A stretch of DNA of 64,000 nt from a bacterium. Lineage in GTDB: Bacteria; Patescibacteriota; Minisyncoccia; Phycocordibacterales; UBA12088. The first letter of the stretch is position 1. The number at the start of each line of letters is the position of its first letter. The notes under the pieces were generated by a model. That model made no database searches. It saw nothing but the letters and a program-made list of their open reading frames with translations, and was not told where the DNA came from. A program made the position numbers and the translations under genes. This document shows positions 35,035-59,687 of this stretch, piece after piece. Location of the stretch: positions 21,574 through 85,573 of the forward strand of contig QKEV01000008.1 of assembly GCA_003252295.1 (NCBI GenBank), in the 5' to 3' direction.

Positions 35035-35045
35035 AAGGGAAGAAC

Positions 35046-35348
35046 CTAGCACCATAAACGTCCAGCTCCTTTAAGTACGAGTGATTTTGCATTAGCAAGC
35101 ACAGCCAACGGTGGGGGAGTTTCTTTTTTAGCTTCTTTTCTCTCACGCACCTCCTTAAGTGCGCTTTGGAAAAGCTCACTATCAACCGTACAGTTGTATG
35201 TACTGTGCAGTTTTGCAGGAATAATGACTGAAATAGTTTTTTCAGCTAACCTTTTAGTTGCTAAAGATAATCTAGAATTCCTTCTGAGCATTTTTTTTGC
35301 TGTAAGGTATTTCTCTGCTATCTTCAACAATTCTTTTGGCTTTTTCAT
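35046..35348 (-). CDS. Hypothetical basic helical protein
   Basis: 100-aa ORF with terminator and promoter context. No motif recognised. Confidence 0.35.
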   Translation of the reverse strand: MKKPKELLKIAEKYLTAKKMLRRNSRLSLATKRLAEKTISVIIPAKLHSTYNCTVDSELFQSALKEVRERKEAKKETPPPLAVLANAKSLVLKGAGRLWC

Positions 35349-35472
35349 TATGCACCTCCTTTGTGTTGTATGGTTACCGTATCTATGTATGAAAATAACA
35401 TAAAAACATATTGTTGTAAATACTTCCTATCTCACCTGCGTTAAGTTACATATTCGTGTAAGCTATAAGTAC

Positions 35473-36612: not shown

Positions 36613-36651
36613 CCTATTTGTTTTTACGTAGTTACTATATAGTAACAAGTC

Positions 36652-37650: not shown

Positions 37651-37714
37651 ATGTAGTAGCTGTACAAGAATGATTCACGTAACGTATGCCCTTTGTGTAT
37701 AAATCATGTAAATA

Positions 37715-40536: not shown

Positions 40537-41490
40537 TTGAGATATATGAGGCAGATTTCATACGTGATTCCAGTTTACAATGAAGAAGATACTTTATCAG
40601 AATTGTATAAGGAACTTTCTAAGGTGCTTGAAAAGATTGAGTGTATTTTTGAATTGATTTTTATAAATGATGGTAGTACAGATAGTTCATTAAAAATATT
40701 AAAAGAGCTTCAAAAAGGTGACCCAAGAATAGTTATAGTAGAATTTTCAAGGAATTTTGGGCACCAGATAGCAATTACCGCTGGAATTGACTATGCGCAG
40801 GGGGATGCAGTTATTGTGATGGATGGAGATTTGCAAGATCCTCCTACTGTAAGTTTGAGATTTATTGAAGAGTGGGAAAAAGGCGCTGAGGTGGTATATG
40901 GACAAAGAAGAACCAGAAAGGACACTTGGTTTAAAGAAAAAACAGCCAATTTGTTTTATAAGGTTTTAAACTTACTTTCTGATGTAGAAATACCTCAAAA
41001 TACTGGGGATTTCAGATTGATGGACAGAAAGGTGGTTGAAGTTATAAAACAAATAAGAGAACATAATCGTTTTATGCGTGGTCTCTCTAGTTATGTTGGT
41101 TTTAAACAAAAAGCTGTTTTATTTGATAGAGATGAGCGTTACGCGGGTGTGACTCACTATCCACTTAAGAAAATGATCAAGTTATCACTTGATGCGATTA
41201 TTGGTTTTTCGACAGTACCACTTAAATTGATTAGTAGACTGGGGTTTGTTGTTTCTGGGTTAAGTATTTGTGGAATTGTATATGCTTTATTTATGAAGTT
41301 TTTCTATGCATCAATTACAGTTTCTGGATGGACCTTTCTTGTAATCTCAATCTTCTTCTTAAGTGGTATACAAATGATAATACTTGGGGTAATAGGAGGA
41401 TACTTGGGAAGAATCTATGACGAGGTTCGAAATCGTCCGCTTTATATTATTTCTCGTGTGAGTCGTGGAAAAAGTATCGAAAGCATCTAA
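40537..41490 (+). CDS. GT2 polyprenyl-phosphate glycosyltransferase (GtrB/DPM1/ArnC-like) with C-terminal TM helices
   Basis: ISYVIPVYNEEDTL...INDGSTDSS...DGDLQDPP (DxD), plus two C-terminal hydrophobic helices. Confidence 0.85.
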   Translation: MRYMRQISYVIPVYNEEDTLSELYKELSKVLEKIECIFELIFINDGSTDSSLKILKELQKGDPRIVIVEFSRNFGHQIAITAGIDYAQGDAVIVMDGDLQDPPTVSLRFIEEWEKGAEVVYGQRRTRKDTWFKEKTANLFYKVLNLLSDVEIPQNTGDFRLMDRKVVEVIKQIREHNRFMRGLSSYVGFKQKAVLFDRDERYAGVTHYPLKKMIKLSLDAIIGFSTVPLKLISRLGFVVSGLSICGIVYALFMKFFYASITVSGWTFLVISIFFLSGIQMIILGVIGGYLGRIYDEVRNRPLYIISRVSRGKSIESI

Positions 41491-41491
41491 T

Positions 41492-43222: not shown

Positions 43223-43226
43223 TTGT

Positions 43227-44888
43227 ATGTTATTTGATTTTGGTTCAATTAAAAAACATGGAATGATCGTCACCTTTCTTTTTGTCTGGACTTGCCTACA
43301 TGTGGTTGGTGTTACTTATGGTACCCATAATCTTCCATTACACCAGTCATATATAGGAGATGAACAAGCTCCAGTAAATGGTGCTTTGCATATCTTGCAA
43401 GATAAAAGTTTGTTAGCTGTACACAATTTAAAAACCTTATACTATGGTCCAGTTTTTGCGGTCTTTGCGTTACCAGCTGTAGTATCTGATTTTACTGTAC
43501 GGTTTGTGACAGGTGAGGTTTCTGGTGCTGATGATTATAAAAATTTTATTTTGTGGAATTGGGGAGGAATAGTTCTTGGTATACGGATTACAGCAACACT
43601 GGTAAGCTTAATGACTCTCATATTTGTGTACAAAATATTGTCCTTAGAAAGTATTAATGAAAAGAAGGATATGTTATTAGCTTTTTTTGGTACAACAATC
43701 GTTGGTTTAAATTTTTATTTTTTTGAATATTCACATTTTTTTAAACATTGGGTCTTTGTGATTTTCTTTTTGGTGGCACAAATATATTTTGCATTACGTT
43801 TACGTGAGGTAGATGGTAAAAGAAGTATCTACTGGATTTTGCATGGTATATGCTTTGTTTTAAGTTTCGGTATTAACTATTTGAGCGCTATATACGCAAT
43901 AGCTTTTCTACCACTACTTTATCTTTTGTGGATTAAAAAAGATAAAGTAGCAAGAAAATATATCTACCTTTATGTGGGTGGTGTGTCATTTACATCATTA
44001 CTAATATTGTTGTGGCATCCCTATGCCTTTTTAAGATATTTAGGTTTTTTAAATATAGGTGATGTAACTTCAGGAGGTGTTGGGAATACCTATAATCCGG
44101 TAACCTCCGTGGATAATTCATGGGGGTATTACTTAACAGAAATATTTTTCAATAATCTTCCTTTAGTTATTGGTGTATTAATTTTGCTATACTTACTGTA
44201 TAAAAGAGGTGTTATAAAAAAACAACTCTATTGGTTGTGGATGTTTATAAGCATTGCTTTAATAAACATGTTAGTCTTCTGTCCATCAACACATCATGAA
44301 GGGAGGTACATGCTTCCAACTATTATGATGTTACTTTTGTTGACAGGTGTTGCGTTGGTTAAATTTATAAACAATATCAAAAATCACGAGTTAGTGATCT
44401 TTCGTTTAGTATCTCTATTGTTAATTTTATATATTGGTTTTCATGTTGTGCATATCGGAAAATGGATAGAAATATATGCCCAAGGTCCGGTTGAAAAAGA
44501 GATATTAAAAGAAATATTTGAAAGGCAGGAAAAAAATGAAGACTTGTCTACAAATCCCGTTTTGCTTATACAGTCATATATTGCAGGTAATGTGCATACC
44601 AAAGAAGCATATGAGTTTTATATTGAAAAGAGGGGACGTGAAGATATGAATTTATATAAAGCGATAATGTCTGCACCACTCCCTGATAATATAGATTTAC
44701 TAAATGCACGTTATGTTTTTGATCAAGATCTACCTCAGGGGTATTTAGAAATTTCTGAATATGAAATGGTGTACCAGTATCTTACACCTAGATCTAAGGA
44801 ACTTAACTTGTTTGATTATTTTGATGAGAATCTGTTGAGACTTTGGTATTGGAAAAGTTTTTCTCCAAGGTATGTAAGAATAAAGTAA
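43227..44888 (+). CDS. Polytopic membrane protein, probable GT-C glycosyltransferase (ArnT/PMT-like)
   Basis: About 12 TM helices. There is an N-terminal loop with GDEQ (DE-type motif). Its position is after the GT2 + GtrA genes. Confidence 0.5.
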   Translation: MLFDFGSIKKHGMIVTFLFVWTCLHVVGVTYGTHNLPLHQSYIGDEQAPVNGALHILQDKSLLAVHNLKTLYYGPVFAVFALPAVVSDFTVRFVTGEVSGADDYKNFILWNWGGIVLGIRITATLVSLMTLIFVYKILSLESINEKKDMLLAFFGTTIVGLNFYFFEYSHFFKHWVFVIFFLVAQIYFALRLREVDGKRSIYWILHGICFVLSFGINYLSAIYAIAFLPLLYLLWIKKDKVARKYIYLYVGGVSFTSLLILLWHPYAFLRYLGFLNIGDVTSGGVGNTYNPVTSVDNSWGYYLTEIFFNNLPLVIGVLILLYLLYKRGVIKKQLYWLWMFISIALINMLVFCPSTHHEGRYMLPTIMMLLLLTGVALVKFINNIKNHELVIFRLVSLLLILYIGFHVVHIGKWIEIYAQGPVEKEILKEIFERQEKNEDLSTNPVLLIQSYIAGNVHTKEAYEFYIEKRGREDMNLYKAIMSAPLPDNIDLLNARYVFDQDLPQGYLEISEYEMVYQYLTPRSKELNLFDYFDENLLRLWYWKSFSPRYVRIK

Positions 44889-44924
44889 AGACACTTTTTA
44901 GTATATGATATTTATTTAATTTTT

Positions 44925-45848
44925 ATGTCAGAAAATATCGAAAAAAATTTTGTTCATATAATTGGAATTGGAGCTTACAAAGCAGCAAGCACTTGGGTGC
45001 ACACATGTTTACGTGAACACCCAGAAATATGTACAGCAACACTTAAGGAGACAAATTTTTTTGGTTCAAATTTTGAAAAAGGGTTTGATTGGTATAAAGG
45101 TCTTTTTGGTGATTATAAAGAAAAAGAACATTTACGTGCTGAATTTTCTCCTGAATATTTAGTAAACAAGGAATCTGCAGGAATGATAAAGATGTATGCA
45201 CCAGACGCAAAACTTATAGTAAGTTTACGAAATCCAATAAATAAAATCTCATCTCGTTATTATTATGATATAACAATTGGAAAGAAAAAACAGAGATTAG
45301 GTTTGAATGAGTGGTTAGAAAAAAACATCGAAAAGCCTAGTAAGTATTTTTTATCTGTTCTTGAGGAAAACAAATACTCCAGTGGTCTGAAGTTGTATTA
45401 TAGTCTTTTCCCAAAAGAACAGATATGTATTGTTTTGGTAGATGATATTAAGAAGGATCCTAAAATGGTGATCAGTAAAATATATAGTTTTCTTGAAGTT
45501 AATAGTACTTTTATTCCTGAAAGTTTGGAAAAAAAAGTAAATTTTACTACTGCAGATACTGTACATTTTCCTGCAATTAATAGATTTCTTTTTCAAATAC
45601 AGGCGAAGGTTAAGAATAGTCATTACGCTAATTTTTTTGTTCCAATGCTTAAGTTTTGTGGTTTTAATTTTCTTGCTAAGAAGCTTTTTCACATAAACAG
45701 AAATCATAAGGATGAAAATCATAGGGAATTAAAAAAGGAAAAAATAAGACAAGATTTAAGAAGAGAATTATATTCTCTTTTTGAGAATGATATCAAGGAA
45801 ACAGAAAAGCTGATTGGTAAAAAACTAGATGGTTGGAAAATTGATTAA
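44925..45848 (+). CDS. Sulfotransferase (PAPS-dependent)
   Basis: The 5'-PSB-like motif is YKAASTW (K-x-x-S/T-T-W). The 3'-PB-like motif is SLRNPINKISSRYYY (RNPxDxxxSxY). Confidence 0.65.
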   Translation: MSENIEKNFVHIIGIGAYKAASTWVHTCLREHPEICTATLKETNFFGSNFEKGFDWYKGLFGDYKEKEHLRAEFSPEYLVNKESAGMIKMYAPDAKLIVSLRNPINKISSRYYYDITIGKKKQRLGLNEWLEKNIEKPSKYFLSVLEENKYSSGLKLYYSLFPKEQICIVLVDDIKKDPKMVISKIYSFLEVNSTFIPESLEKKVNFTTADTVHFPAINRFLFQIQAKVKNSHYANFFVPMLKFCGFNFLAKKLFHINRNHKDENHRELKKEKIRQDLRRELYSLFENDIKETEKLIGKKLDGWKID

Positions 45849-45986
45849 ATTAATCAACATTTTTAAATTCCTTATTCTCTATATAAGAGCTTTAAAATAA
45901 GAGGAGATAACAGAAAGCGGTTATGGACACTTCTTGTTTTTGTTATGTGGTGGAAAAAATGGGTGAAAAAAAACGATTAAAGTGTT

Positions 45987-47027
45987 TTATGAAAGCCACT
46001 TTAAAATCTTAATCACTCCCATTTTAGCGTTTTGTTTATGTGCAGACACGTTTTGACGTGTTGCAATGGAAGTTTTGTTCTCATGGTAATACTTGTATGC
46101 CTCAAGAAGCATGTCTTCGTTGGTGTGGGTTGGTTGCCAATCCATCTCCTTCTTTATCTTGGCTGTGTCAAAAATAAAGTCTTCAGCTATCATCTTGTAT
46201 TGATAAGGACCAAGTGGTGATAATCCAAGTTTGTGTGCTAGACGCATAACCCACAAAATGAGTTTACGCGGTAGCCCTCTCACCTTTGATGTGGAATTGG
46301 TGTGTGTGATGACGTACTCATACACCTCCTTAAAACTTTTTACATTATCACTACCAATGTTGTAAATAACAGTTTTTTGTACATCAAGTGCTTTCAGGCA
46401 TGCATTAACAAGATCGTCTGCATAAATAAATTGGTATTTATTTTTACCACCACCTACAACCCAGACAATTCGGTTTTCATCCATAAACTCATACAAGATT
46501 GATAAAAGACCTAAACGACCTGCAGATATAATCGTTGGGCATCGAAACATTACTGAATGAATATGGTTACTGTATTCTGTGAGAATTTTCTCACCCTCAA
46601 CTTTTGTTTTACCGTAAATCTCAACAGGATTTGGTGTGTCTGTTTCTAGTACTGGTCGCCCCATAGGTTCACCCCAAAGGCAGTTGCTCGAGATAAAGAT
46701 AATTTGATCTGTGCCATGTTTCCTACACATTTCCGCAATGTTGCGTGTTCCATCGACGTTTGATTCCCATAAAAATTGCTTATCTTTTGCAATGTGTGCT
46801 AGCTGTGCCGCCAGATGAAATACACCATCAAATGGTCCATGTGCGCTAAAAATACTATCTAGGAGTTTCTGGTCTCGTATATCGCCGACGATACTTACCA
46901 GGTTGGTGTGTATCTTATCGTCGGGTTCTAGATCAATGTTTACAACACGGTGTCCATCCTTAAGGAGACGTTCTTTTAGAATCGTGCCAAAAAAACCTGA
47001 GCCACCTGTAATCAAAAAACTCTTCAT
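45987..47027 (-). CDS. NAD-dependent epimerase/dehydratase (extended SDR)
   Basis: FLITGGSGFFGT Rossmann motif and YGKTK (YxxxK). Confidence 0.85.
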   Translation of the reverse strand: MKSFLITGGSGFFGTILKERLLKDGHRVVNIDLEPDDKIHTNLVSIVGDIRDQKLLDSIFSAHGPFDGVFHLAAQLAHIAKDKQFLWESNVDGTRNIAEMCRKHGTDQIIFISSNCLWGEPMGRPVLETDTPNPVEIYGKTKVEGEKILTEYSNHIHSVMFRCPTIISAGRLGLLSILYEFMDENRIVWVVGGGKNKYQFIYADDLVNACLKALDVQKTVIYNIGSDNVKSFKEVYEYVITHTNSTSKVRGLPRKLILWVMRLAHKLGLSPLGPYQYKMIAEDFIFDTAKIKKEMDWQPTHTNEDMLLEAYKYYHENKTSIATRQNVSAHKQNAKMGVIKILKWLS

Positions 47028-47054
47028 ATTCTCTATCCTATCATAATAATGTCC

Positions 47055-47492
47055 TTATATTCGGTTATCTGAAAATGCAAAGAACTTTATTGCAAAAAAA
47101 TTAACAAAAAAACCAACCACCAGCGCAATACCTTTTGCCGGCATAACTTCGCAGGACGCGCCCTCAACTAATGCTATCACAACCAATAAATTAACGAGTA
47201 GACCAAAACCACTTGAAGCATAGTGTTTAATACATGTTCGAGTCCATGATGAGGAACGAGCAAAGACAAACTTATTTGAAAAGAGAAAGTTGGTCATTGT
47301 TCCTGACATAAAACCTGCGAAAACTGCAACAGTGTAGTGTACAAAAGGAACTTTTAGTACGAGATACACTGACAAAAGGTCTACGCATGCTGAAACAATA
47401 CTTACAAACAAGTAACGAAATAGTTGCCAAGTAAGGAATTTTGGAAATGGTACTGTAAGCAGTTTTTCTTGTAGATGGGTGTAAATGTTCAC
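47055..47492 (-). CDS. GtrA-family polysaccharide-synthesis membrane protein
   Basis: 145 aa with 4 TM helices. GtrA-like motifs (RYLFVSIVSACVDLL...FLFSNKFVF). Confidence 0.75.
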   Translation of the reverse strand: MNIYTHLQEKLLTVPFPKFLTWQLFRYLFVSIVSACVDLLSVYLVLKVPFVHYTVAVFAGFMSGTMTNFLFSNKFVFARSSSWTRTCIKHYASSGFGLLVNLLVVIALVEGASCEVMPAKGIALVVGFFVNFFAIKFFAFSDNRI

Positions 47493-47647
47493 GTACCTAC
47501 AATAATAATATATTTACAGTATGTTAACTACGTTTTATATGTAATTTCTATGATTGAGTATGAGTTTAGATGGAACTATAAGGATGGTATACTGGAATTA
47601 TTAAAGCAGTAAGCCAAATTCTAAGCTAATTCGGAATATTTATCATT

Positions 47648-49228
47648 ATGAAAAAGAAAGCAGTAATTATAGGTGGTGGTCCTGCAGGTCTAACAGCAGC
47701 GCATGAGTTGCTTGCTACTACTGATATACATCCTGTGGTGTTTGAGAAGGGTGAAATGTTTGGTGGTATAGCAAGAACAGAGAACTATAAAGGCAACAGG
47801 ATAGATATCGGTGGACATCGTTTTTTCTCAAAATCAGACAGGGTGATGGATTTCTGGCGAGCTTTTCTACCTGTTCAAGGGTACCCTGCGCAGGATGAGA
47901 TCAAACTTGGAGTAAAGAAGAGAGAAGAGTTTGTGTCAGATGGACCAGATCCGGAAAAAACTAACAATGTTATGTTGATACGTAGCAGACTGTCGAGGAT
48001 ATTTTACCTACGTAAGTTTTTTGACTATCCTGTAACGCTCAGTAAAAACACGTTACTCAACTTGGGTATAGTGAGAGTTGCTCGCATAGGTTTCAGCTAC
48101 ATAAAGATACGACTGTTTCCAAGAAAAGAAGAGAATTCGCTCGAAGACTTCTTTATTAACCGCTTTGGTGTTGAACTGTATAAAACTTTTTTTAAGGATT
48201 ACACGGAAAAGGTGTGGGGAATTCCTTGTACAAAGATAAAGGCAGAGTGGGGTGCACAGAGAATAAAAGGTCTATCTGTTACGAAGACTGTTTTACACGC
48301 ACTGCGTTCAGTACTTCCTAAGAGGAAAAGTATTGAGCAGAAAGATACTGAAACAAGTCTCATCGAAACATTTCTCTACCCTAAGCTTGGTCCGGGACAG
48401 ATGTGGGAGTCTGTAGCTCAAAGCATCATTGAAAGTGGTGGAGAAACTATCCTTAATAGTGAGATAGTGCGTATAAAGCTGCAAGGTAAAAAAGTTGTGT
48501 CGGTAACAGTAAAAGACAGAGGAAGTGGTAAAGAAGAAAGTGTTCCTGCTGACTACATCTTTTCAACCATGCCGATAAAAGAACTCATCACTTCCATGGA
48601 AGGTAGTGTTCCTGAAAGGGTGCATACTCTTGCGAAGGGACTTGAGTATAGGGACTTTATGACGGCTGGGTTGTTGCTCAACAAACTAAAGATTAAAAAC
48701 GAGACAAACATTAAAACAGTGGGGAACATCATTCCTGATAATTGGATATATATCCAAGAGCCGGATGTGAAGGTGGGAAGACTTCAGTTTTTTAACAACT
48801 GGAGTCCATATCTAGTGAGCAATGCAAACAAAGTCTGGATTGGGATGGAGTACTTTGCGAGTGAAGGGGATAAGCTTTGGTCGATGAGTGATGAAGCATT
48901 TTTAGAATTTGCAAAAGAGGAGCTTGCAAAGATAGGTATTTCTGATGAGAGTGATGTGGTAGATGGGGTGGTGATACGCGCTCCTAAAGCATATCCATCG
49001 TATACCGGAGAAGGGTATGACCACTTTAGTGAGATACGAGACTTTTGTGACAGTATTGAGAACTTGTACTTGATAGGTAGGAACGGTATGCATAAGTACA
49101 ACAACCAGGATCATTCAATGCTTTCAGCTTTTGAGGCAGTACGTCATATCCGTGAGAATTTGAAGACAAAAGAAAACATTTGGAACGTAAATGCGGAAAA
49201 GGAATATCATGAGGAGAAAAGTTCATAG
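47648..49228 (+). CDS. NAD(P)/FAD-dependent oxidoreductase (amine-oxidase/UDP-galactopyranose-mutase-like fold)
   Basis: [17 protein letters not shown] ... GGHRFFS. The family is shared with the C-terminal domain of 41492..43222. Confidence 0.7.
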
Positions 49229-50678
49229 CATACTACAGTCAGTCAAAGAGTATGTAGATCGTTCCCCAAAGATGTTCATCTTTTCGGGGTCTTTGCTATG
49301 GCTCTCAGTTGTTGTTCCTTTCATTTATACCTTTGGTAACATGCCGAGTACTATTCCTGTTTTACCAGGTGACCCTGGTGAGTATGTTGTTTTAGGTAAC
49401 GCTATCTTGAACCATGAGGTGTACAGTTTGTCTGAAGGTAATGAGAAGTTTTTTGATAGTTTCCGCACACCCGGGTATCCGGTTTTTATCGCATTAGTGT
49501 CAGACCTGTTTGGCTCACTAGACTATGTTATAGTCGTGCAACTACTTCTCTACGCTGCCTCTGCGGTACTCATCTTTAGTCTAGGAGAAATACTCTTTGA
49601 TAGGAAAGTTGCGTGGCTTACAACGATTCTGTGGATGATAAATCCTTCCGGAATATTTCATGCTTCATTTATTTGGACTGATTTCTTTTTTACTTTTGTA
49701 CTACTACTTTCTATCTCTACAGCTCTGTGGGCATATGCCAGTAAGGGGTATACTCACATACTCACTATTGCTTCAGGGTTGCTGCTTGGCTACGCGATTC
49801 TTGTGAGGCCTGTTGCTCAGTTTCTGCCCGTAATGGTCTTTCTCATACTTGCATTACTGTTGCTGTCTAAAGTGACAAGGTGTTTTGTTGGTAAAAAAGG
49901 TTTGCTACTGATTTTTCTGTGGTTTGTTTCTTGTGTGGTTGTTGTCTCACCATGGTCAGTGAGGAACTATGTACGCTTTGATACCTTTGAAATCTCTTCA
50001 GTGAGCGCCTTTAATCTTCTCTACTACAACCTTACCGAGCATAATGCATACGAGAAGGGACTGCCTACTCCTGAGCAGCTAATCCCAGAAAGTGTCCCAT
50101 CGTATGATAAATCCCTGTTCCGGTCTTTTGTGTACCAAGAGTTGTATACAAATATTGCGAAGCGTTACCTACAGGAACATTGGTTTTCATATTTGAAATT
50201 TCATTTAGTAAAAACTACAGCATTCTTCATCGCTCCAAGTTATACCGATCTTGGCTTACTATTTTTCCCAGACATCGAGAAGACGTACAGAAGCGTTAGT
50301 TTGTCTTCGATAGCGTTGCATTTTGATGTAAAAAGTCTTTTCTCTCTCGTGTACTCACAAGTGAAGGTAGGGGACTACTCTTTTGTTTTGTACTTGGCAA
50401 ATGCTGTCTTTTGGGTGTACCTCTTCATGTTCTCTACCGTGACTCTAGTTGTCTCTCTACTTAAAAAACCAAGAACAATGGAAACTTTTGTGATACTTTC
50501 GTTTGCGCTCTTGGTGTTATACTTTGCAGTACTCACTGGTCCGGTAGCAATAGCTAGGTATCGGTTGCCCGTTGAGCCGTATGTTCTACTCACCGCTGTG
50601 GCTGGATGCACGTACTTGTGCAGGTACCTGAAGAGTGGAAGGTTGAGTATGAAAAAGAATGGTTACGTAGGTATGTAA
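49191..50678 (+). CDS. Polytopic membrane protein, probable GT-C glycosyltransferase (ArnT/PMT-like); start uncertain (alt. 49269)
   Basis: About 11 TM helices. There is a conserved RTPGYP loop and a DxxE-like motif (DPGEY). It overlaps the upstream gene by 38 nt if the start is taken at 49191. Confidence 0.5.
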
Positions 50679-50723
50679 TTAATTATATACCTAGAAATTT
50701 CTTTTTCAGTTACATGTTACAGT

Positions 50724-51785
50724 ATGCGTATTATGAGTAAGACAGTGCTCTATTTTGGAAATATTGATATGGAAAACTCCCGTAACAAGGTGTTTTCTTT
50801 GGGGTTGAAGCGTAATGGTGTAGAAGTGCATACATGTACCAGTACTGCAAAAGGTCTTAAGAAGTTTTGGAGACTATATAAAAAACATAAAGAGTTTAGA
50901 GATAAATACAGTGCTCTTATTGTTGGCTACGGTGGACGTATTACCGTGCCTCTTGCAAAACTCATCTCAGACAAACCGGTCATCTTTGATGCACTTTGCT
51001 CATACTACGAGACGGAAATACTTTCTCGAGATGCACTCAAAGAGTATCCGTTTCGAAATGCACGGGTGAGGTTTGTAGACTGGGTGTCTACCAAGTTTGC
51101 TGACAAAGTGCTTGTAGAGACACAAAAACAAAAGGAGTACTTCATAGAAAAACTAAAGGTGCCTGAAGAGAAACTTGTTGTTGTGTACACAGGGGTAGAC
51201 GATACTACGTTCGTACTAGATTCAGGGGTAGAAAAGTTTGAGAAGTTTACTGTGCTCTTTCGCGGGAGAATAATGATAGAGGCGGGAGTGCCTACTGTGG
51301 TGAGAGCTGCAAAGCTTTTGGAGGATGAAGATATACATTTTCTCATCCTAGGATACGGTCATGACAGGGCAAACAAAGAGTTTCAGGAAAGTTTAGAAAA
51401 GGAAGACCCAGGCAACCTAGAGGTGATAGACTGGCATGTGAGGTTTGATGAGTTAGTAGAGTACACGCAACGATCTCACATATCACTTGGGCAGTTTGCA
51501 GATCATGAACGTTTGAAGCGGACAGTACCACATAAGGCGTACGAAGCGATGGTGATGAAGCTTCCATATATTACAGCACGGACTGAGGGTATCAGTGAGA
51601 TACTAGAGGATGGTAAGCATTGCCTCATGACTAATCCAGAAGATGCAGAAGGTTTGGCACAGCAGATAAAGAAACTCTATGAAGACCAATCATTAAGAGA
51701 GAAGTTATCAGAAGAGTCACGTGCACTCTATGAGCAAAAGTTTACTCCAAAGGAGATAGTAAAACCTTTATTAGAAATATTGTAG
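50724..51785 (+). CDS. Glycosyltransferase (GT-B, GT4-like)
   Basis: C-terminal GT-B region and gene context. The motifs are divergent. Confidence 0.55.
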   Translation: MRIMSKTVLYFGNIDMENSRNKVFSLGLKRNGVEVHTCTSTAKGLKKFWRLYKKHKEFRDKYSALIVGYGGRITVPLAKLISDKPVIFDALCSYYETEILSRDALKEYPFRNARVRFVDWVSTKFADKVLVETQKQKEYFIEKLKVPEEKLVVVYTGVDDTTFVLDSGVEKFEKFTVLFRGRIMIEAGVPTVVRAAKLLEDEDIHFLILGYGHDRANKEFQESLEKEDPGNLEVIDWHVRFDELVEYTQRSHISLGQFADHERLKRTVPHKAYEAMVMKLPYITARTEGISEILEDGKHCLMTNPEDAEGLAQQIKKLYEDQSLREKLSEESRALYEQKFTPKEIVKPLLEIL

Positions 51786-51795
51786 TAGAAAAAAT

Positions 51796-52446
51796 ATGAT
51801 AGCAACTTTAAAAAGGATTCGGGTAAAAATTTTAAACAAGATACGTGAAGGGAAACAGCAATTTGGCTTTTTACAGAGAAAGTATATTACGCCAAAGATA
51901 CCTGAAAATGAAGATGGTAAGGTGTATGTAAACTTAGGGTGTGGGGTAAATACCTCAGAGGAGTTTATTAATGTAGACACGAGAGGGTTCCCACACACGC
52001 ACTACATTCATGAGGTGGAAGACCTTTCTATGTTTGAGGATGGTTCTGTAGATTTACTGTATGCGAGTCATTTACTGGAGCATGTGGACAGGTCAAAAGT
52101 TCCTACAGTACTTAAAGAGTGGAAACGTGTTTTAAAGAGTGGAGGTGTGTTGCGTTTTGGAGTACCTGACTTTGATGGTTTGGTGGAAGTGTACAACGCA
52201 AACAAAAAGAATATTGAGTCGATAATGGCACCACTCATGGGCGGTGAGGGGAAGTATGATGATCATCATACAGCTTGGAATTTTGCATATGCTGAGAAAC
52301 TGCTAAAAGAAGCAGGGTATAGCGTAGTACGAACATGGGATCCGGAAAAAGTTGAGCACCATGATTTTAGTGACAAAACCATGCGAAAAATCGAAGTTGG
52401 AGAAAGAAAAATATCAATTAGTTTAAATGTTGAAGCGGTGAAGTAG
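51796..52446 (+). CDS. Class I SAM-dependent methyltransferase
   Basis: VYVNLGCGVNT (motif I) ... LLYASHLLEHV ... GGVLRFGVPD. Confidence 0.75.
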   Translation: MIATLKRIRVKILNKIREGKQQFGFLQRKYITPKIPENEDGKVYVNLGCGVNTSEEFINVDTRGFPHTHYIHEVEDLSMFEDGSVDLLYASHLLEHVDRSKVPTVLKEWKRVLKSGGVLRFGVPDFDGLVEVYNANKKNIESIMAPLMGGEGKYDDHHTAWNFAYAEKLLKEAGYSVVRTWDPEKVEHHDFSDKTMRKIEVGERKISISLNVEAVK

Positions 52447-52453
52447 GAAACGA

Positions 52454-53164
52454 CTATTCTCTAATAAAAAGAGAATCCTCAAAGAGTGGAAGCATGTTTT
52501 TACTGTTTCTTTTAGTACCAACATCCCCTTTGTATGTAAAACCAAGGTTTGTTAGTAGTGTATAGATATCAGCAAAGAGTGGTTGTCCTTTGTATAATTC
52601 GTAGTAAGCAGTTTCTATCAGTATTATGGAAGTTTCCTCAATGATGTTTTTTGCTCCAGAGAGCACCTTGTCTTCGTATCCTTGCACGTCAAGTTTTAAA
52701 AGAATCTCTTTCTTTAAGTTGTTTGCAGATAAGACAGTATCAAGAGTTTTCACGATTATCTTTTCTTCAGTTGTATCTTTTGTAAAAGGAAAAATTTCTT
52801 CTGCAAAGGCTGAGTTTTCAAGTATTGATGAACTTGGTGCGTAGGCATTTTTGTTCATTGATACTTCTTCGTTTTTGTCACCAAGTGCGAAGTTGAGCGC
52901 TGTAAAGTTTTTATCTTCACTAAAGTTTTCCTTTAAGGTTTTAAAGGTTTCTTGCAGTGGTTCAAAAGAGTAAATAGTAGCATCAGGTAAAACAGTCCTT
53001 ATGTCTGTTGCAAATTGACCAATGTTTGCACCTGCATCGATAACTGTTTCGATTTTATACTCATTTAAAAATAGGTAAGGGTGAAGATCTCCTGTATATT
53101 TTGTTACTTGTAAGCCCAATTTATTTACCGTCTTTTTTGTTATTTCTTTTGGTTTTGTTTTCAT
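52454..53164 (-). CDS. FkbM-family methyltransferase
   Basis: TVIDAGANIGQFA together with FALGD are typical of Methyltransf_21/FkbM. Confidence 0.75.
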   Translation of the reverse strand: MKTKPKEITKKTVNKLGLQVTKYTGDLHPYLFLNEYKIETVIDAGANIGQFATDIRTVLPDATIYSFEPLQETFKTLKENFSEDKNFTALNFALGDKNEEVSMNKNAYAPSSSILENSAFAEEIFPFTKDTTEEKIIVKTLDTVLSANNLKKEILLKLDVQGYEDKVLSGAKNIIEETSIILIETAYYELYKGQPLFADIYTLLTNLGFTYKGDVGTKRNSKNMLPLFEDSLFIRE

Positions 53165-53173
53165 AAAATTAGA

Positions 53174-54430
53174 TCAATGTTTTATTTTTTCAATACTTTC
53201 GTGTGCAAAAAGATATGATACTTGTAGATAAACAACACTATAAAGTAACTTTACAAATATTGCACCCCAAATACCGTATAAGAAGATGCAAACAATTGAC
53301 AAGATTATCTTAAAGAAGGGAAGTGTTACGTGAAGTATGTATAGAGATTTTTTTTCATAATTTGCCCATAGGGTAGGGATTAATATATAAGATGGTAAAA
53401 GAATTAAGGATAATACGTACACCTGTGAGTAAGGTAGTGAACTAAGGTAGTTTGAAAAGAAAAGTTTGTATCCAAATGGTGCAAGTAAAAGGTAAAAAAC
53501 CATGATCACTGATGCTATAAGTAGAAGCTGTTTTGTTTTTCTCCTTATACTATCCCAAGTCTTATGTTTATTTTCTGCAAGTTTTGGAAGCGCTAAGGGT
53601 GTTAATGATGTAAAAAGTGCTCTTAACCTGTCAGGTATGAGTACCGCAAAAGAGTAGATTGCAAGTTGCACTGGTCCAAGCAGGTGATAGATAATAATAT
53701 TATCTGTCTGTTGTGCCATTGAGTTTAGGATATTTGTCAAACTTTGATGTTTGGTGTAGGAAATATCCGACATATCAATTTCACTGTTTGTGGTCGGATA
53801 TTTTTTTTGTATAAAAAAGCAAAAAAAGGTATTTACTAATCCATTAACAACAAAATAAGCACATACTAACCAAATGGCACTTGGTGCAAAAAAGATCACA
53901 TAAACTGTTACTAAAAAGTAGACCAGAGTGGTTATGTTTGAGTACATTGTTGAGGTGCGGAACATTTTTTTACCTCTCAGAAAAGCCTGGTAGGTATTCA
54001 TCGTGTTTGACAGGGGACCAAAGATAGCAACAATTATAAATGAAATAGCATATGCTATGTTTTCGTTATAGAGATAGTACACTGCAAGAAATAAGGAAAA
54101 AAGAAAATACAACAGGGACCATTTCAATTGTATTTTGATAGATTTTTTAAACATACTGTCACGTCCTTGAGCCACAGCACGTATGACAGTAGTGTTCATA
54201 CCGGTGAGTGTAAAAGCGCTTAGAAGAGCAGCTGTAGAGAATATGTATTTATAAATACCGTAGGTATTTGGGTCAACAAAATTGGCAAGTAGTATTGAGA
54301 GTGTAAACGAGGATATTATTCCAACAATTTGTCCAACACCTAACCAGAAACCATTCTCTCCAATGTAAATCATGTCAGTCTTTGTGTAACGTTCAGTCCA
54401 CTTAAGAAACCTGTATATTTTGCTTTGCAT
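53174..54430 (-). CDS. Wzx-type oligosaccharide flippase (MOP/polysaccharide biosynthesis protein family)
   Basis: 418 aa with about 12 TM helices. The N-terminal region is MOP-flippase-like. Confidence 0.7.
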   Translation of the reverse strand: MQSKIYRFLKWTERYTKTDMIYIGENGFWLGVGQIVGIISSFTLSILLANFVDPNTYGIYKYIFSTAALLSAFTLTGMNTTVIRAVAQGRDSMFKKSIKIQLKWSLLYFLFSLFLAVYYLYNENIAYAISFIIVAIFGPLSNTMNTYQAFLRGKKMFRTSTMYSNITTLVYFLVTVYVIFFAPSAIWLVCAYFVVNGLVNTFFCFFIQKKYPTTNSEIDMSDISYTKHQSLTNILNSMAQQTDNIIIYHLLGPVQLAIYSFAVLIPDRLRALFTSLTPLALPKLAENKHKTWDSIRRKTKQLLLIASVIMVFYLLLAPFGYKLFFSNYLSSLPYSQVYVLSLILLPSYILIPTLWANYEKKSLYILHVTLPFFKIILSIVCIFLYGIWGAIFVKLLYSVVYLQVSYLFAHESIEKIKH

Positions 54431-54548
54431 GTATGGTAATTATAACCATAAAATATACATAAAAGTTGTGTAAATAACATATGTGACAACAGTAGTTTTT
54501 ATGTATCTTTGTTTTGTTATTAAAAGTAACAAATGATACAATCTGCAA

Positions 54549-55334
54549 ATGTCTGTTGAGGAGTATGCAGAAATGGTCAAAGATGTTAGCTCACTTTCTC
54601 TTGAGTATTACAAGAGGAGTGTTGAAGTTACCTACAAAGAAGATGACTCGCCACTCACTGAAGCGGACAGAGTGGTGCATAGGCATCTGGTTTCCGAACT
54701 ATCAAAGACAAACATACCAGTGCTTTCTGAGGAGGGGAATCAGGAGGTGAGTTCTACTGATGGGGAACTATGGGTGATTGATCCAATAGATGGTACAAAG
54801 GATTTTATACAAGGAACTGATCAATTCTCAACGATGGTTGCTCTAGTGCAGGACGGTGTGCCGATTATGGGTATAGTATACGCACCAGCACTAGATGAGC
54901 TTTACTTTGCTGAGAAAGGAAAAGGTGCCTACTTACAAGTGGGTGACAAGGTGGAACGTTTGACTGTTTCTGATAGAGGAGACCTTGCTGACGCGACACT
55001 TGTAGTGAGTCGTAACCACGGAAGTCCCGAGTATGAGGAAAAGCTTGAGGAGATTGGTGTTAAAAAGAGGGAGAAAGGGTCTATAGGAATAAAACTTGGT
55101 GAGATAGCAAAAGGTGATGCCGAAGTATACGTAAATCACTACCGTAAGCTTGGTTGGTGGGATGTGCTTGCGCCACAGATCATACTTGAGGAGGCGGGAG
55201 GTAAGGTGACTGGTTTGAGTGGAGAGGTGTTGCGGTATGATGAGCCGCCGTATCAGGTAGTGGAGGGTGTGCTTGCATCAAACGAGTTACTGCATGATTC
55301 TGTACTTGTAAGTTTTAACGAGATAGAAAGATAA
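54549..55334 (+). CDS. Inositol-monophosphatase-fold phosphatase, CysQ-like 3'(2'),5'-bisphosphate nucleotidase
   Basis: WVIDPIDGTKDF metal-binding motif and EEG...D pattern. The length is ~260 aa. Confidence 0.7.
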   Translation: MSVEEYAEMVKDVSSLSLEYYKRSVEVTYKEDDSPLTEADRVVHRHLVSELSKTNIPVLSEEGNQEVSSTDGELWVIDPIDGTKDFIQGTDQFSTMVALVQDGVPIMGIVYAPALDELYFAEKGKGAYLQVGDKVERLTVSDRGDLADATLVVSRNHGSPEYEEKLEEIGVKKREKGSIGIKLGEIAKGDAEVYVNHYRKLGWWDVLAPQIILEEAGGKVTGLSGEVLRYDEPPYQVVEGVLASNELLHDSVLVSFNEIER

Positions 55335-55353
55335 CCTATGGAGGAAGAATGTA

Positions 55354-55800
55354 GTGTTAGTCTTACAGCAAGTAACAATGGTTTTGTGCACTGGCTTTAT
55401 GGGCTTTTTGGTACCTGGTAAAACCACTGTTGCCGATAGAGTCTATAAAGAGGTACATGGGAAAGGTTTACCTATTGTGCGACTTGATGGTGACGTCGTA
55501 AGAGAAAATCTAACCGAAGACTTAGGTTTTAGTTGAGAAGATAGAAATGAAAATACACGCCGTGTTGGTTTTGTTGCTGACCTTTTGAGTAAGAATGGTG
55601 TAGTTGTGTTATCGTCGTTTATTACAGCTTATGAAGAGTGGAGAAAATGGCTCAGAGAGAGGGGATGCTTTCGTTTATAGGAATTTCGGACGTGTTTGAA
55701 ACTCCAGAAAAAACAGATGTTTGTTTGCAGTGGAGTGAAAAGTCAGCAGAAGAGAGTAAAACCCATTATTGATTATTTGAAAGAGGGTAGGATGATTTGA
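55354..55800 (+). pseudogene. cysC: Adenylyl-sulfate (APS) kinase gene disrupted by an in-frame TGA, a frameshift and an internal deletion
   Basis: The first frame has GFLVPGKTT (P-loop) and VRLDGDVVRENLTEDLGFS, followed by a stop. Downstream reads EDRNENTRRVGFVADLL...VVLSSFI, then in shifted frames DVFETPEKTDVCLQ and KPIIDYLKEGRMI. These match APS-kinase blocks LDGDNVRxxLxxDLGFS, DRxENIRR, FISP, EVFVDTPLEVCEQ and ILDYLKERG. Confidence 0.65.
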
Positions 55801-55826
55801 TAAAAAAGTGCTTCTTTTATATTTCG

Positions 55827-56882
55827 TTAAGAATTATGGATTTTTTTTAAAAATTTCGATAATTCTCTTGCATAAATTTCAGCATCTGCATTTTTGACAA
55901 CAAAATCTCGAGCATTCTTTCCTAAAAATTTTCTTTTGTTTTCATTATTGTATAAATCTCGAATTGCTTTTTGCATTGCCTTCACATCGTGTTTGGGCAC
56001 AAAGACACCATTCTTTCCATCTTGTATATAGGAAGATAGGGCTTTTGTTTTTGTAGCTATTATAGCCTTTCCGCTTGCCATGGCTTCAATAACTACATAT
56101 GTTCCCATTGAATCATTGTTGTCTTCTTTCATGTTTAGTCCGACAATGTTGATCCTTGCTCTATTGTAAAGTTTTTTCATTTCTTCATGAGTATAAAATC
56201 TTGCAGTTACATTTTTTGGTAAGGGTTCATACTGTGCCACTCGCTCTGGTTTGGTTGCGATGTGTAACTGAATTTCTGGTAATCCTTTCATTGCTTCGAT
56301 AAGTGTTCCAAAGTCGCGACTTGGATCAAGTCCAACAGAAATAATGTAGTCTCCTTCTTCCGTATCTGATGGTGTAAAATATTTTGTATCAACACCTTCA
56401 AATAAAAATTTTGCGCGTTCTCCCATATAAGGGAACATTTTTCGTAAAGAATCTTCTTCTGCTTGTGAAAGTGCCACAATACCATCAGCTTTTGAAACAG
56501 CATATTTAAAAAGTTTTGTCCTAAGTGTTTTTTCTTTTTCTATGGTACCAGTAATATTTGCATCATAAATAACCCACTTCGGTCTAGGTAAATGAAAAAT
56601 TGCTTTAAAGAGCAGGGATGCATAAGCTCCTCCTGTGAAAACGATATCATACTTAAAAAAGTATGGGAAAAAAGGTAAATGCATCCAAAAAATATTTAAA
56701 ATCCTTCTCCATACTTTTGCTACGGGATTGGGAAGTATGTGTTCAGGGTCAAAAAAATTTGTTTCAATACCATATTTTCTTATGCGGTACATACCAATAA
56801 AATGGTTGTCATGACCTTTGCCAGATTCAAAATTTTTTGCTTGTTCAATACGAGGACGACTGAACAAAAATAACACCTTCAT
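55827..56882 (-). CDS. Glycosyltransferase family 4
   Basis: GT4 C-terminal region (VIEAMASGKAIIATK). Confidence 0.75.
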   Translation of the reverse strand: MKVLFLFSRPRIEQAKNFESGKGHDNHFIGMYRIRKYGIETNFFDPEHILPNPVAKVWRRILNIFWMHLPFFPYFFKYDIVFTGGAYASLLFKAIFHLPRPKWVIYDANITGTIEKEKTLRTKLFKYAVSKADGIVALSQAEEDSLRKMFPYMGERAKFLFEGVDTKYFTPSDTEEGDYIISVGLDPSRDFGTLIEAMKGLPEIQLHIATKPERVAQYEPLPKNVTARFYTHEEMKKLYNRARINIVGLNMKEDNNDSMGTYVVIEAMASGKAIIATKTKALSSYIQDGKNGVFVPKHDVKAMQKAIRDLYNNENKRKFLGKNARDFVVKNADAEIYARELSKFLKKIHNS

Positions 56883-56946
56883 AAAATATTTATTACATTA
56901 GTGATTGTAACATTAGTATAGTTAAAATTGTTAACAAGAAATAAAA

Positions 56947-59628
56947 ATGTGGATAGTAGACAGAGTTTTAAAAAATAATGTTATTTTAATAATATTAATA
57001 GTTCTTTATTTTTTTAACATGTTTTTTAGAAGAGTTTTAATAAAAAATATCATACAACTGTTTGTGTTGTCTGTTGTTGCCGCTGCTCCAAGTGATTTTT
57101 TATTTGCAGAAGAAATACAGACCATTAAAAGTGATGTATCATTATCGGATGGTTTAGTATCGTATTGGTCAATGGATGAGGAAATTGGTATCAGAAAAGA
57201 CATTGTAGGAGGAAATGATTTAATACCAGAAGGAAACGTGATAGGAATTTCAGCGGTACAAGGATATGGTGCTGATTTTGTAAAGAATAATATTGAATCA
57301 CTGTATGTAGAACATGTTCCTGAATTAGAACCAGGTAGTGATTACAGTATTTCTCTTTGGTACAGACATGATAGTTCTGAATATAATGTTCAAAGTGTAA
57401 TTTCAAAGGATGGTGTGAATCCATTAAAAGGATACACTTTATTTACAGATGATGGTTCTATTTTGTATATGACACATCAGAATATAACCACGTTGCATGG
57501 TCCAACCCTTGAAGTTGGTAAGTGGTATCACATTGTCGCAACACATGATGCTACAAATAATTTAAATTTTCTATACGTAAATAATTCTGCACCTTATACA
57601 GTACCTGGTGGGTATTTGGATTCCGAAGGAGCGACTTTAAGAGTAGGTGGATATAACTATAATACAAATTATTATTCTGACGGTGCAGTTGATGAGTTAG
57701 GTTACTGGAATCGGGTACTTACTCAGGAGGAGGTAGGTCGTTTGTATAACGAAGGTGAAGGTGTGCCATATGATGTTAGTAATGAAGATGTTGACGATGG
57801 GGTGTCGTCTGTAGCTTTTATTCCAGGTATTACAGGTAGTAGGTTATACGTAAATAGTTTATTTGGTGAAGATAAGTTGTGGGAGTCAATACGTTTAGGT
57901 GATTTGAGTGATATTGGTTTTACTAAAGATGGTGTGAGTGAGCGAAATGATGTATATACGAGAGATGTTGTGGAAACACTTCGCCCAGTAGTTGAGTGGT
58001 GGGATTACGCAGAGGGGTATAGTGATTTTATGGAATATCTCAATATCCTTACTCAAGAAGGTTTAATAAATGAATGGGAGGCACTTCCATATGATTGGCG
58101 TATGGCAACCGATAAACTTTTTCACTATGGTGAAAATTTGGGTAATGGAAATATTTCATATCTGACAGGTGAGCAAGATGAACCATACATTATTACTCGA
58201 CTAGAAGAACTTGCAGAAAACTCTCAAACAGGAAAGGTGACTATTGTTGCGCACAGTAATGGTGGTTTAGTAGCGAGAAATCTTTTGAAGTATTTACAAG
58301 ATACAAATCATCCTTTGTTTGAAAAAATTGATAAAGTGATACTTGTTAGTTCACCACTTCTTGGCACCCCTAAAACTATTGGAGAATTATTGCATGGTAC
58401 GACTAATATCGTAGAAGGTGCCACACGGGACGCAATGGAAAATATGCCAGGGGTGTATGGGTTGTTGCCATCGCAAATACTTATGAGTAATTTAAATGAC
58501 CCGGTAGTTGAAGTAGATTATCTTGCTCAAATTGAAAATCCATTTAAGAATTTTTACGATACAAAAATAACAACATATGATGATCTTGTGGCGTTCTTGC
58601 TTGGCGAATTGGCGCCTAGAAATGAACCAGATAGTACTGAGACATGGATGCCAAATATACTTAACAAAACTATTCTAGAGGATGTACGGAGTATGCATAG
58701 TGGTGTCGACAGTCAAGATTTTCCTGAAAATATTGAGGTGGTGTCGATCATAGGAACTGATCTTCCAACCGCTCGTGCTGTTCGATATACAAATTGTCTT
58801 GAGTATCATGTTGCATGTGTGGGAAAGGAGAGCGAGACATTACATGAATGGCTTTTTACTACAAGAGGTGACGGAACAGTTGTTACAACCTCGGCAAAGG
58901 GTGGTGTTGGGGTAGATAAAACAGTGTTTGTTTCACTTACAAAAATTGGTAAGGATGAAGGTGAAAATTATAGACATGCCACCATATTGTCTTCTTTATA
59001 TGTGCAAAATGTGATTAAGAGTGTGCTTTTGGGAATGAGTGATGAAATTGAAGGTGGAACTGAAGGTGTGAATACTGTAAAACGAATAGAACTCAAAGTG
59101 TATTCGCCTGTTGATGTGCATTTCTATAAAGATGATAACCATACCGGTGTGGTTAAAAATGGTGAAGAAAATGATTTTGGTAGGGAGTATGAACAAGAAG
59201 TACCAACATCATACTATCGTGAATGGGGTGAGGTTACTTACTTAGGAACCGAGTTGTATGATGATAATCTGGACATAACTTTTAAAGGGAAAGAAGTGGG
59301 TATGTTCACTTTAACGTTTGATGTGTATTTAGGGGAAGAATTACTTGATTCATATATATTTAAAGATATTCCTGTGAATTCAAAGACGGAAGGTTGGATT
59401 GAATTGACTGAAGGTGGGGAACCAATTTTGCACTATGATGGTGATGGAGATGGGGAAATCGATTTTACATTGAAACCGGATGATAGTATTCCTGATTCAC
59501 TTAGGAAATGGGTAAGAAACAAATTTCGTGTGATAGCAGAACTTATGCAACAAAAAGGAAAAGGTGTTGCAATAGCAATTGAAAGTCAGTTTAGTGAGAT
59601 ATCTCATAAGTTACAAAAAACATATTAA
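56947..59628 (+). CDS. Secreted/membrane-anchored protein: LamG-like (concanavalin-A-like lectin) domain + alpha/beta-hydrolase (lipase/PGAP1-like) domain
   Basis: N-terminal TM/signal. LamG_3-like block (SISLWYRHDSS...GKWYHIVATHDATNNLNFLYVNN). GxSxG nucleophile context IVAHSNGGLVARNLL. Confidence 0.5.
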   Translation: MWIVDRVLKNNVILIILIVLYFFNMFFRRVLIKNIIQLFVLSVVAAAPSDFLFAEEIQTIKSDVSLSDGLVSYWSMDEEIGIRKDIVGGNDLIPEGNVIGISAVQGYGADFVKNNIESLYVEHVPELEPGSDYSISLWYRHDSSEYNVQSVISKDGVNPLKGYTLFTDDGSILYMTHQNITTLHGPTLEVGKWYHIVATHDATNNLNFLYVNNSAPYTVPGGYLDSEGATLRVGGYNYNTNYYSDGAVDELGYWNRVLTQEEVGRLYNEGEGVPYDVSNEDVDDGVSSVAFIPGITGSRLYVNSLFGEDKLWESIRLGDLSDIGFTKDGVSERNDVYTRDVVETLRPVVEWWDYAEGYSDFMEYLNILTQEGLINEWEALPYDWRMATDKLFHYGENLGNGNISYLTGEQDEPYIITRLEELAENSQTGKVTIVAHSNGGLVARNLLKYLQDTNHPLFEKIDKVILVSSPLLGTPKTIGELLHGTTNIVEGATRDAMENMPGVYGLLPSQILMSNLNDPVVEVDYLAQIENPFKNFYDTKITTYDDLVAFLLGELAPRNEPDSTETWMPNILNKTILEDVRSMHSGVDSQDFPENIEVVSIIGTDLPTARAVRYTNCLEYHVACVGKESETLHEWLFTTRGDGTVVTTSAKGGVGVDKTVFVSLTKIGKDEGENYRHATILSSLYVQNVIKSVLLGMSDEIEGGTEGVNTVKRIELKVYSPVDVHFYKDDNHTGVVKNGEENDFGREYEQEVPTSYYREWGEVTYLGTELYDDNLDITFKGKEVGMFTLTFDVYLGEELLDSYIFKDIPVNSKTEGWIELTEGGEPILHYDGDGDGEIDFTLKPDDSIPDSLRKWVRNKFRVIAELMQQKGKGVAIAIESQFSEISHKLQKTY

Positions 59629-59687
59629 AGTATTTGTAAAATTTCTTTATTGAAATAGTTTCTTCATCACGACGATGTTTTTCCAGA

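Follow-up and report, generated by a model that had tools for sequence, protein, structure and literature searches.

A very probable APS kinase pseudogene next to intact cysQ, and a predicted PAPS-type sulfotransferase gene, in the surface-glycan locus of a probable CPR bacterium

Where does a glycan sulfotransferase obtain its sulfate donor if the kinase gene that once served the synthesis of that donor has decayed? This question is raised by a 64-kb window of a 103,848-bp metagenome contig (QKEV01000008.1). The window is the whole stretch of DNA that was analyzed, and all coordinates given without a contig name refer to it. It contains a gene for a predicted sulfotransferase that uses 3'-phosphoadenosine 5'-phosphosulfate (PAPS), a gene (cysQ) for a phosphatase predicted to remove the by-product 3'-phosphoadenosine 5'-phosphate (PAP) and, adjacent to cysQ, the remains of a gene (cysC) for adenosine 5'-phosphosulfate (APS) kinase. 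We found intact genes for the donor-using enzyme and for the by-product phosphatase, whereas the kinase step is no longer encoded in the window. Our results are most consistent with a supply of PAPS from outside the window. The three genes, with the kinds of evidence used for each (HMM, hidden Markov model), are:

44925..45848 (+): intact gene for a predicted PAPS-dependent carbohydrate-type sulfotransferase, 307 aa (HMMs, PDB alignment, AlphaFold2, Foldseek)
54549..55334 (+): intact gene for a predicted CysQ-type 3'(2'),5'-bisphosphate nucleotidase (PAP phosphatase), 261 aa (HMMs, PDB, alignment)
55338..55800 (+): very probable APS kinase (cysC) pseudogene, formerly translationally coupled to cysQ (HMM fragments, three-frame tblastn, alignments)

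An earlier reading made from the letters alone (the sequence-only reading) had recognized a broken APS kinase gene beside cysQ. We found that the damage is worse than described. Intact homologues were mapped on all three frames with tblastn and then aligned, which gave four lesions:

55414..55418 (+): lesion 1, a 1-nt insertion (T at ~55416) within the P-loop codons (three-frame map, alignment)
55537..55539 (+): lesion 2, an in-frame TGA stop (alignments)
55644..55671 (+): lesion 3, the junction of a ~29-codon (~88-nt) deletion together with a frameshift (three-frame map, alignments)
~55755..55760 (+): lesion 4, a frameshift between '...SAEES' and 'VKPIIDYLKEGRMI' with its stop (three-frame map, alignment)

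The ancestral start of cysC is ATG 55338, 3 nt after the TAA of cysQ and in the same frame as cysQ. The sequence-only reading had started the remnant at a GTG (55354) and had counted the P-loop as present and intact; both points are corrected here. The frame that opens at ATG 55338 encodes 'MEEECSVSLTASNNGFVHWLYGLFGT', which corresponds to the '..KGFVLWFTGLSGS' strand together with the leading half of the P-loop, and it stops at TAA 55419-55421. The inserted T (context 'GGTACC[T]GGTAAAACC'), which had been overlooked, lies outside any homopolymer run and splits the P-loop between two frames, with 'GLFGT' in one and 'GKTT' in the other, so that 'GKTTVAD...' is shifted. The 'P-loop' of the ORF (open reading frame) that begins at GTG 55354 is a by-product of this shifted frame.

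The remaining lesions remove or displace much of the rest of the kinase. The sequence-only reading had listed a TGA stop, a frameshift and a missing middle; the stop and the ~29-codon deletion stand, and the frameshifts number three rather than one (in the P-loop, at 55644-55671 and at ~55755-55760). The position of the TGA is occupied by K, R or P in the closest homologues and by D only in E. coli, not by Asp or Glu as had been supposed. The deletion takes homologue residues ~98-126, including the catalytic-lid segment E..C..RD.KG.Y.KA..G, and with them eight positions that are invariant in 17 intact kinases. Three other positions that are invariant in these 17 homologues carry substitutions: T to Y (in FTGLSG), P to A (in ISP) and T to I (in FTGI).

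The remnant can still be assigned to a family. Two stop-free fragments pass the APS_kinase threshold (39 and 38.4 bits; cut-off 21.1) and cover HMM positions 6-52 and 55-94; the C-terminal blocks lie in other frames. A frame-corrected reconstruction matches several adenylyl-sulfate kinase models, all below cut-off (for TIGR00455, 110.1 against 138.7), because the middle segment is missing. Identity to the closest intact kinases is 53-58% over the retained columns, and identity to E. coli CysC is 47% over 89 residues. We considered that the remnant might derive from a kinase of the cysC family that is not an APS kinase, a candidate being Campylobacter Cj1415, which we take to be a cytidine diphosphate (CDP)-amidate kinase that serves phosphoramidate modification of the capsule. 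This was rejected on the identity to E. coli CysC (47%) and to kinases that adjoin sat (53-58%) and on the presence of a PAPS-type sulfotransferase.

The lesions were reproduced in an independent assembly. A 3,722-bp contig (L001) from the Logan assembly of SRR7216773, also seen as the same contig in 2 samples, covers 52858-56579. It differs from the window by three single-nucleotide polymorphisms (SNPs; at 53141, 53151 and 56535) and no indels, and the cysC remnant is identical. Assembly error had been the natural worry about the broken gene, and no intact cysC emerged from this comparison. We are confident that cysC is a genuine pseudogene, apparently one that is fixed in this population.

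Relatives of the window genes indicate what the arrangement once was. In the nearest CysQ relative (P0250, 64% identity, contig L080; we found none closer), cysC begins 15 nt downstream of cysQ, its first 77 codons are open, its P-loop is intact and K occupies the position of the TGA. A second CysQ (P0252, 53%, L081) directly follows a sat-cysC fusion gene, and the contig of a third (P0251, 51%, L082) is too short for a readable neighbor. Several CysQ homologues of ~37-44% identity, from uncultured bacteria and archaea, are single polypeptides that combine CysQ and APS kinase, in both domain orders (CysQ-CysC in P0265, P0283 and P0294; CysC-CysQ in P0281, P0287, P0313, P0333 and P0335). A literature search found no description of such fusion polypeptides. 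The CysQ-CysC order is collinear with the window, which thus has the gene order of these fusions and of the adjacent pair in L080; in the window, however, the two genes form individual ORFs, of which the kinase one has been destroyed. Tight pairing of cysQ with cysC is therefore a feature of this CysQ clade, and this pairing supports assignment of the protein as a PAP phosphatase.

Outside the closest relatives, cysC and cysQ are found in other settings. The closest intact cysC (P0120) is in a trpS-sat-cysC row, and P0121 and P0123 are standalone cysC genes beside nifU-nifS in CPR-like contigs (CPR, candidate phyla radiation). On the CPR-like contigs L072 (9298-9831) and L075 (10001-10534), which carry two of the closest intact APS kinases, the standalone cysC directly follows nifU-nifS, with no ATP sulfurylase within 10 kb. 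Among ~150 more distant CysQ loci from GTDB genomes and JGI metagenomes, the best CysQ was 35-41% identical, and an APS-kinase-like match was present in only one locus (L087), at ~5 kb from CysQ; no close syntenic relative was found in GTDB genomes or JGI metagenomes. Absconditicoccus praedator (CP054059.1, a complete-length 1.13-Mb CPR record) has a CysQ among glycan genes (L168, 8898-13867). Its immediate neighbor is an EamA-family transporter gene, and a flippase and an FkbM-type methyltransferase are encoded close by; within 10 kb, cysC, sat and sulfotransferase genes are all absent.

We found that the product of cysQ keeps what is expected of its family, as the sequence-only reading had proposed in calling it a CysQ-like PAP phosphatase. 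The protein matches Inositol_P (8.5e-49), its best NCBIfam model is TIGR01331 CysQ (190.7 bits, with HisN next at 144.3), and its best solved structure is Bacteroides CysQ (3b8b, 1.2e-33). All family-invariant residues are kept, including E61, E62, D78, G82, T83, W204 and D205, and the metal-binding motifs EE, DPxDGT and WD of the inositol-monophosphatase superfamily are present. The GC content of cysQ is typical of the rest of the window. There is no terminator around the gene, and the one promoter-like site (54514-54542) is not above the level of shuffled sequence. Its family and its linkage to PAPS synthesis predict that CysQ removes PAP.

The sulfotransferase is also intact. The motifs that had led to its recognition ('YKAASTW' and 'RNP') are present, and the protein passes both Sulfotransfer models: Sulfotransfer_1 with 2.5e-14 (53.7 bits; cut-off 22) and Sulfotransfer_3 with 3e-09 (37.9 bits; cut-off 27). 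Its best PDB matches are the bacterial sulfotransferase 3rnl (1.7e-15) and the human heparan-sulfate 3-O-sulfotransferase (3-OST) 3-OST-3 (9.5e-11). In alignment with 3-OST-3, K19 in 'GAYKAASTW' (5'-phosphosulfate loop) falls on 'GVKKGGT', E73 in 'EFSPEY' on 'EKTPSY', and R102 and S110 in 'RNPINKISS' (3'-phosphate motif) on 'RDPVTRAIS'. E73 is nearly invariant in the family and is presumably the catalytic base, a role that we take from established knowledge of 3-OST and N-sulfotransferase (NST). Among 24 homologues, R102 is invariant and S110 nearly so, and every column that is invariant in the 24 is kept.

An AlphaFold2 model of the sulfotransferase (pLDDT, the predicted local distance difference test score, 87.9) was compared with solved structures. 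All of the top 21 Foldseek matches were heparan-sulfate-type sulfotransferases or 3rnl; they included 3-OST-1/3/5 and N-deacetylase/N-sulfotransferase 1 (NDST1), heparan-sulfate enzymes solved with PAP. The model has the same fold as 3-OST and NDST (1t8t, 3uan and 1nst) and 3rnl (Foldseek probability 1.0, TM-score 0.62-0.77), and it shares with 3-OST the phosphosulfate Lys, the 3'-phosphate Arg and Ser, and the Glu in 'E-x-[ST]-P-x-Y'. However, it is only 17-20% identical to 3-OST, NDST and 3rnl and has ~60 extra residues of lower confidence (~200-270). By eye, its N-terminus has no signal or membrane segment, and cytoplasmic action is therefore expected; this bacterial protein would differ in that respect from 3-OST and NDST, which are Golgi enzymes. 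The two homologues that we examined also belong to glycan loci, and neither has PAPS genes in the 10 kb around it. The protein is, by prediction, a real PAPS-type enzyme, and its locus and the contexts of its homologues point to a glycan acceptor. No second sulfotransferase was found in the 64-kb window.

The sulfotransferase gene and the cysQ-cysC pair probably do not share a history. They had been grouped as a sulfation module, and this stands in that the three genes are present as stated, although the module is a loose one. The sulfotransferase gene is 8.7 kb from cysQ, with eight genes between them on both strands. It is the last gene of a low-GC block (described below), and its GC z-score is -6.8 as compared to +0.4 for cysQ, which resembles the first 40 kb of the window (z-scores were computed against the genes at 1-40 kb). 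Because the compositions differ so sharply, the histories probably differ, and the two were probably not inherited as one unit.

Is PAPS then still available to this sulfotransferase? We found no ATP sulfurylase in the window, as had been noted before, and not even a remnant, by tblastn with the sat-cysC protein of L081; Pfam scans of all long window ORFs gave no sulfurylase domain. Disabling events number 3-4 in ~551 nt of cysC and none in the 786 nt of cysQ. At the neutral rate of cysC, the probability of zero events is ~0.02-0.045 for cysQ alone and ~0.002-0.007 for cysQ and the sulfotransferase gene together, a crude estimate that assumes neutral accumulation of disabling events at the cysC rate. 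The absence of decay from both genes favors continued selection and continued sulfation, and hence a source of PAPS outside the window. We lean towards the view that cysQ and the sulfotransferase gene are still under selection, and sulfation most likely continues. PAPS most likely comes from outside the window; on balance, we think that it is still available, and the simplest source would be a second locus (a second cysC or a sat-cysC) in the part of the genome that lies outside the window.

The following sequence of events would account for the locus. A native, translationally coupled cysQ-cysC pair would once have provided both the kinase step from APS to PAPS and the removal of PAP. cysC would then have decayed through the four disabling events and the substitutions at invariant sites, with cysQ remaining intact. 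The low-GC block with its intact heparan-sulfate-type sulfotransferase gene would have been acquired separately, ~8.7 kb away. The sulfotransferase would act in the cytoplasm, presumably on the lipid-linked repeat unit, one sugar of which would be sulfated before Wzx flips the unit, and CysQ would hydrolyze the inhibitory PAP to AMP (adenosine monophosphate). PAPS, no longer made by the locus, would be drawn from genes outside the window or, less likely, from outside the cell.

Several points weigh against this interpretation. Neither sat nor a second cysC was seen within the 64-kb window, and the selection argument stands on very few events. The sulfotransferase gene may have arrived recently with the low-GC block, in which case its intact state says little about selection. 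The cell might also retain CysQ to deal with PAP of other origin or to serve as a phosphatase in some different capacity; its TIGR01331 score (190.7) is below the equivalog cut-off of 228.8, and the protein is filed as CysQ-like for that reason. The placement of the organism in the CPR, discussed below, is drawn from gene content and the taxa of homologues rather than from a marker phylogeny.

The sulfotransferase gene and cysQ are both within a large glycan locus. Pfam and NCBIfam scans of the locus gave many GT4 and GT2 glycosyltransferases, epimerases, FkbM and other methyltransferases, a PMT_2-like GT-C protein, two pairings of GtrA with a flavin adenine dinucleotide (FAD) oxidoreductase, a Wzx flippase and a Wzy_C protein. 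The locus and some of its members are:

29632..62012 (both strands): Wzx/Wzy-type surface-glycan biosynthesis locus (Pfam and NCBIfam scans)
40537-41490 (+): GT2, the first gene of the tightly packed low-GC block
41465-43222 (+): GtrA-FAD oxidoreductase fusion, 585 aa, in the low-GC block 40537..45848
43227-44888 (+): polytopic membrane protein, 553 aa, in the low-GC block 40537..45848
53174..54430 (-): Wzx-type flippase, divergent from cysQ (Polysacc_synt 1.7e-17; GC 0.338)
59688..62012 (+): Wzy_C (O-antigen ligase/polymerase-like) protein with TPR repeats, at the end of the locus (domain scan)

The composition of the locus is mosaic. The block at 40537..45848 (+), which ends with the sulfotransferase gene, has a GC content of 0.29-0.345 (z -4.4 to -6.8). 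It is one of three low-GC outlier blocks (40537-45848, 52454-54430 and 55827-59628; GC 0.29-0.36, z -3.8 to -6.8) that alternate with genes of typical composition. This interleaving suggests repeated horizontal replacement of glycan genes. No repeats or insertion sequence (IS) elements were found at the block boundaries, and a repeat search of 39-62.5 kb gave matches at chance level only; disruption of cysC by an IS element or repeats was rejected on the same search.

Other features of the locus were observed. The second pairing of GtrA with an FAD (amine-oxidase-type) oxidoreductase consists of divergent neighbors at 47055-47492 (-) and 47648-49228 (+). A low-GC gene at 56947-59628 (+), adjoining glycan genes, encodes an 893-aa protein with Laminin_G_3 (concanavalin-like) and LCAT/PGAP1-like lipase domains. 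Two ORFs on the same strand, 31388-32587 (-) and 32469-33614 (-), overlap by 119 nt; the upstream GT4 gene ends in TGA, and the downstream ORF of 399 aa has no Pfam match and a true start that is probably further in. A small GIY-YIG nuclease gene at 33617-33884 (-) is apparently split by a frameshift: 33720-33884 matches positions 1-53 of 78 of Pfam GIY-YIG (8.3e-13), and the expected C-terminus '...REKYLKSGMGKRYIKNRLKRF' continues out of frame (33617-33790). With cysC, the window seems to contain at least two disrupted genes.

What kind of organism carries this locus? The window is chromosomal, with genes for ValRS, TsaD, MurB, MurC and MurD and two tRNA genes. Its content looks CPR/Patescibacteria-like and includes a subtilase with a T4SS_pilin (PF18895) tail, a VirD4-like ATPase and an LTD/PKD protein, and most of the named homologues of CysQ and cysC come from CPR bacteria and DPANN archaea. 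From gene content and the taxa of homologues, the source is probably a CPR/Patescibacteria bacterium. The subtilase (811 aa, with the T4SS_pilin domain at its C-terminus; 8210-10645, +) and the VirD4/TrwB-like coupling ATPase (24746-26695, +) are pieces of an apparatus like those of type IV secretion.

The alternative that survives best, and one that we consider possible although unlikely, is that the whole sulfation pathway is being lost and that cysC died first. The sulfotransferase gene would then be an idle passenger of a recently arrived low-GC block or the next gene to decay, and cysQ would survive through some other function or for lack of time to decay. The strong compositional deviation of the sulfotransferase block fits recent transfer, the frameshifted GIY-YIG gene (33617-33884) is a sign that gene decay is under way in the window, and no sat or second cysC is in the window. 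The CysQ of A. praedator, encoded among glycan genes and with none of cysC, sat and a sulfotransferase gene within 10 kb, indicates that CysQ can persist without neighboring PAPS genes. Against loss of the pathway, cysQ is free of lesions and keeps all invariant residues although its operon partner has four lesions, and the sulfotransferase keeps all family-invariant and catalytic residues.

A further alternative, which we regard as improbable, is that the organism is an episymbiont supplied with PAPS or APS by its host. An APS kinase of its own would be dispensable, and the sulfotransferase and a CysQ that clears PAP would still be needed. The pattern seen (synthesis of the donor lost, use of the donor and removal of the by-product kept) is the one expected, the gene content looks CPR-like, and the recurrence in CPR-like contigs of standalone cysC with no sat within 10 kb hints at incomplete sulfate activation. 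However, no transporter candidate was identified, we know of no demonstrated uptake of PAPS by bacteria, and a literature search gave no report of sulfated surface glycans or sulfation in CPR/Patescibacteria. Only a 64-kb window was read, so a simpler, internal source of PAPS is possible.

The lesions might instead be an artefact or a minority allele in a population with an intact cysC. Metagenome consensus sequences can hold errors, and both assemblies may stem from the same or related libraries. We consider this explanation very unlikely: the four lesions are independent and of different kinds, one being a deletion of ~88 nt, the P-loop insertion is not in a homopolymer run, three more substitutions are at invariant sites, and a second, independently assembled contig, found in 2 samples, matches the remnant exactly, its 3 SNPs all lying outside it.

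Some CPR lineages read UGA as Gly, and the A. praedator homologue could not be translated with table 11. Nevertheless, expression of cysC through UGA recoding and programmed frameshifting is effectively refuted, as the sequence-only reading had already judged for recoding, since TGA ends 4/46 long ORFs in the window, none of the long ORFs depends on read-through, homologues have K, R or P rather than G or W at the stop, and three frameshifts and ~29 lost lid codons are beyond rescue.

The locus can be set beside known systems. Marine bacterial polysaccharide clusters with a sulfotransferase, cysQ and genes for PAPS synthesis have been described, among them the capsular-polysaccharide cluster of Cobetia marina KMM 1449, with a sulfotransferase, cysNC, cysD, cysQ and a sulfate permease (PMC11766843). 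Like that cluster, in which CysQ was assigned to the clearing of PAP (PMC11766843), the window has a sulfotransferase and cysQ in a polysaccharide locus. In contrast to Cobetia, which has a complete PAPS set and export by an ATP-binding cassette (ABC) transporter, the window has cysQ and a dead cysC, with no sulfurylase and no permease; its glycan pathway is of the Wzx/Wzy type, and its genome looks CPR-like rather than that of a marine gammaproteobacterium. Mycobacteria have a CysNC/CysQ/Stf sulfation system in which the logic of PAPS, CysQ and sulfotransferase is known (PMC3141025). The same families, by which PAPS is made and used and PAP is cleared, are represented in the window, as in that system and in E. 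coli CysC/CysQ. The genes of E. coli, where they serve sulfur assimilation, and of Mycobacterium are intact, whereas the kinase gene in the window is a pseudogene and there is no hint of assimilation. By this comparison, the locus is a reduced, partly broken member of the known sulfated-polysaccharide clusters, in an unusual lineage.

By itself, a decayed gene in a reduced genome is unremarkable; pseudogenes are common in small genomes. This one indicates that a metabolic pseudogene can be called with confidence from a metagenome contig, given a second assembly and close relatives. Loss of donor synthesis with retention of donor use and clearance is the pattern expected of metabolic dependence on a partner, and it also fits a second locus for PAPS synthesis. 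If PAPS or APS were supplied by a host, this would be a case of scavenging of an activated-sulfate cofactor by a CPR-type episymbiont with a sulfated Wzx/Wzy glycan. The locus offers a definite starting point in the search for sulfated surface glycans of CPR/Patescibacteria.

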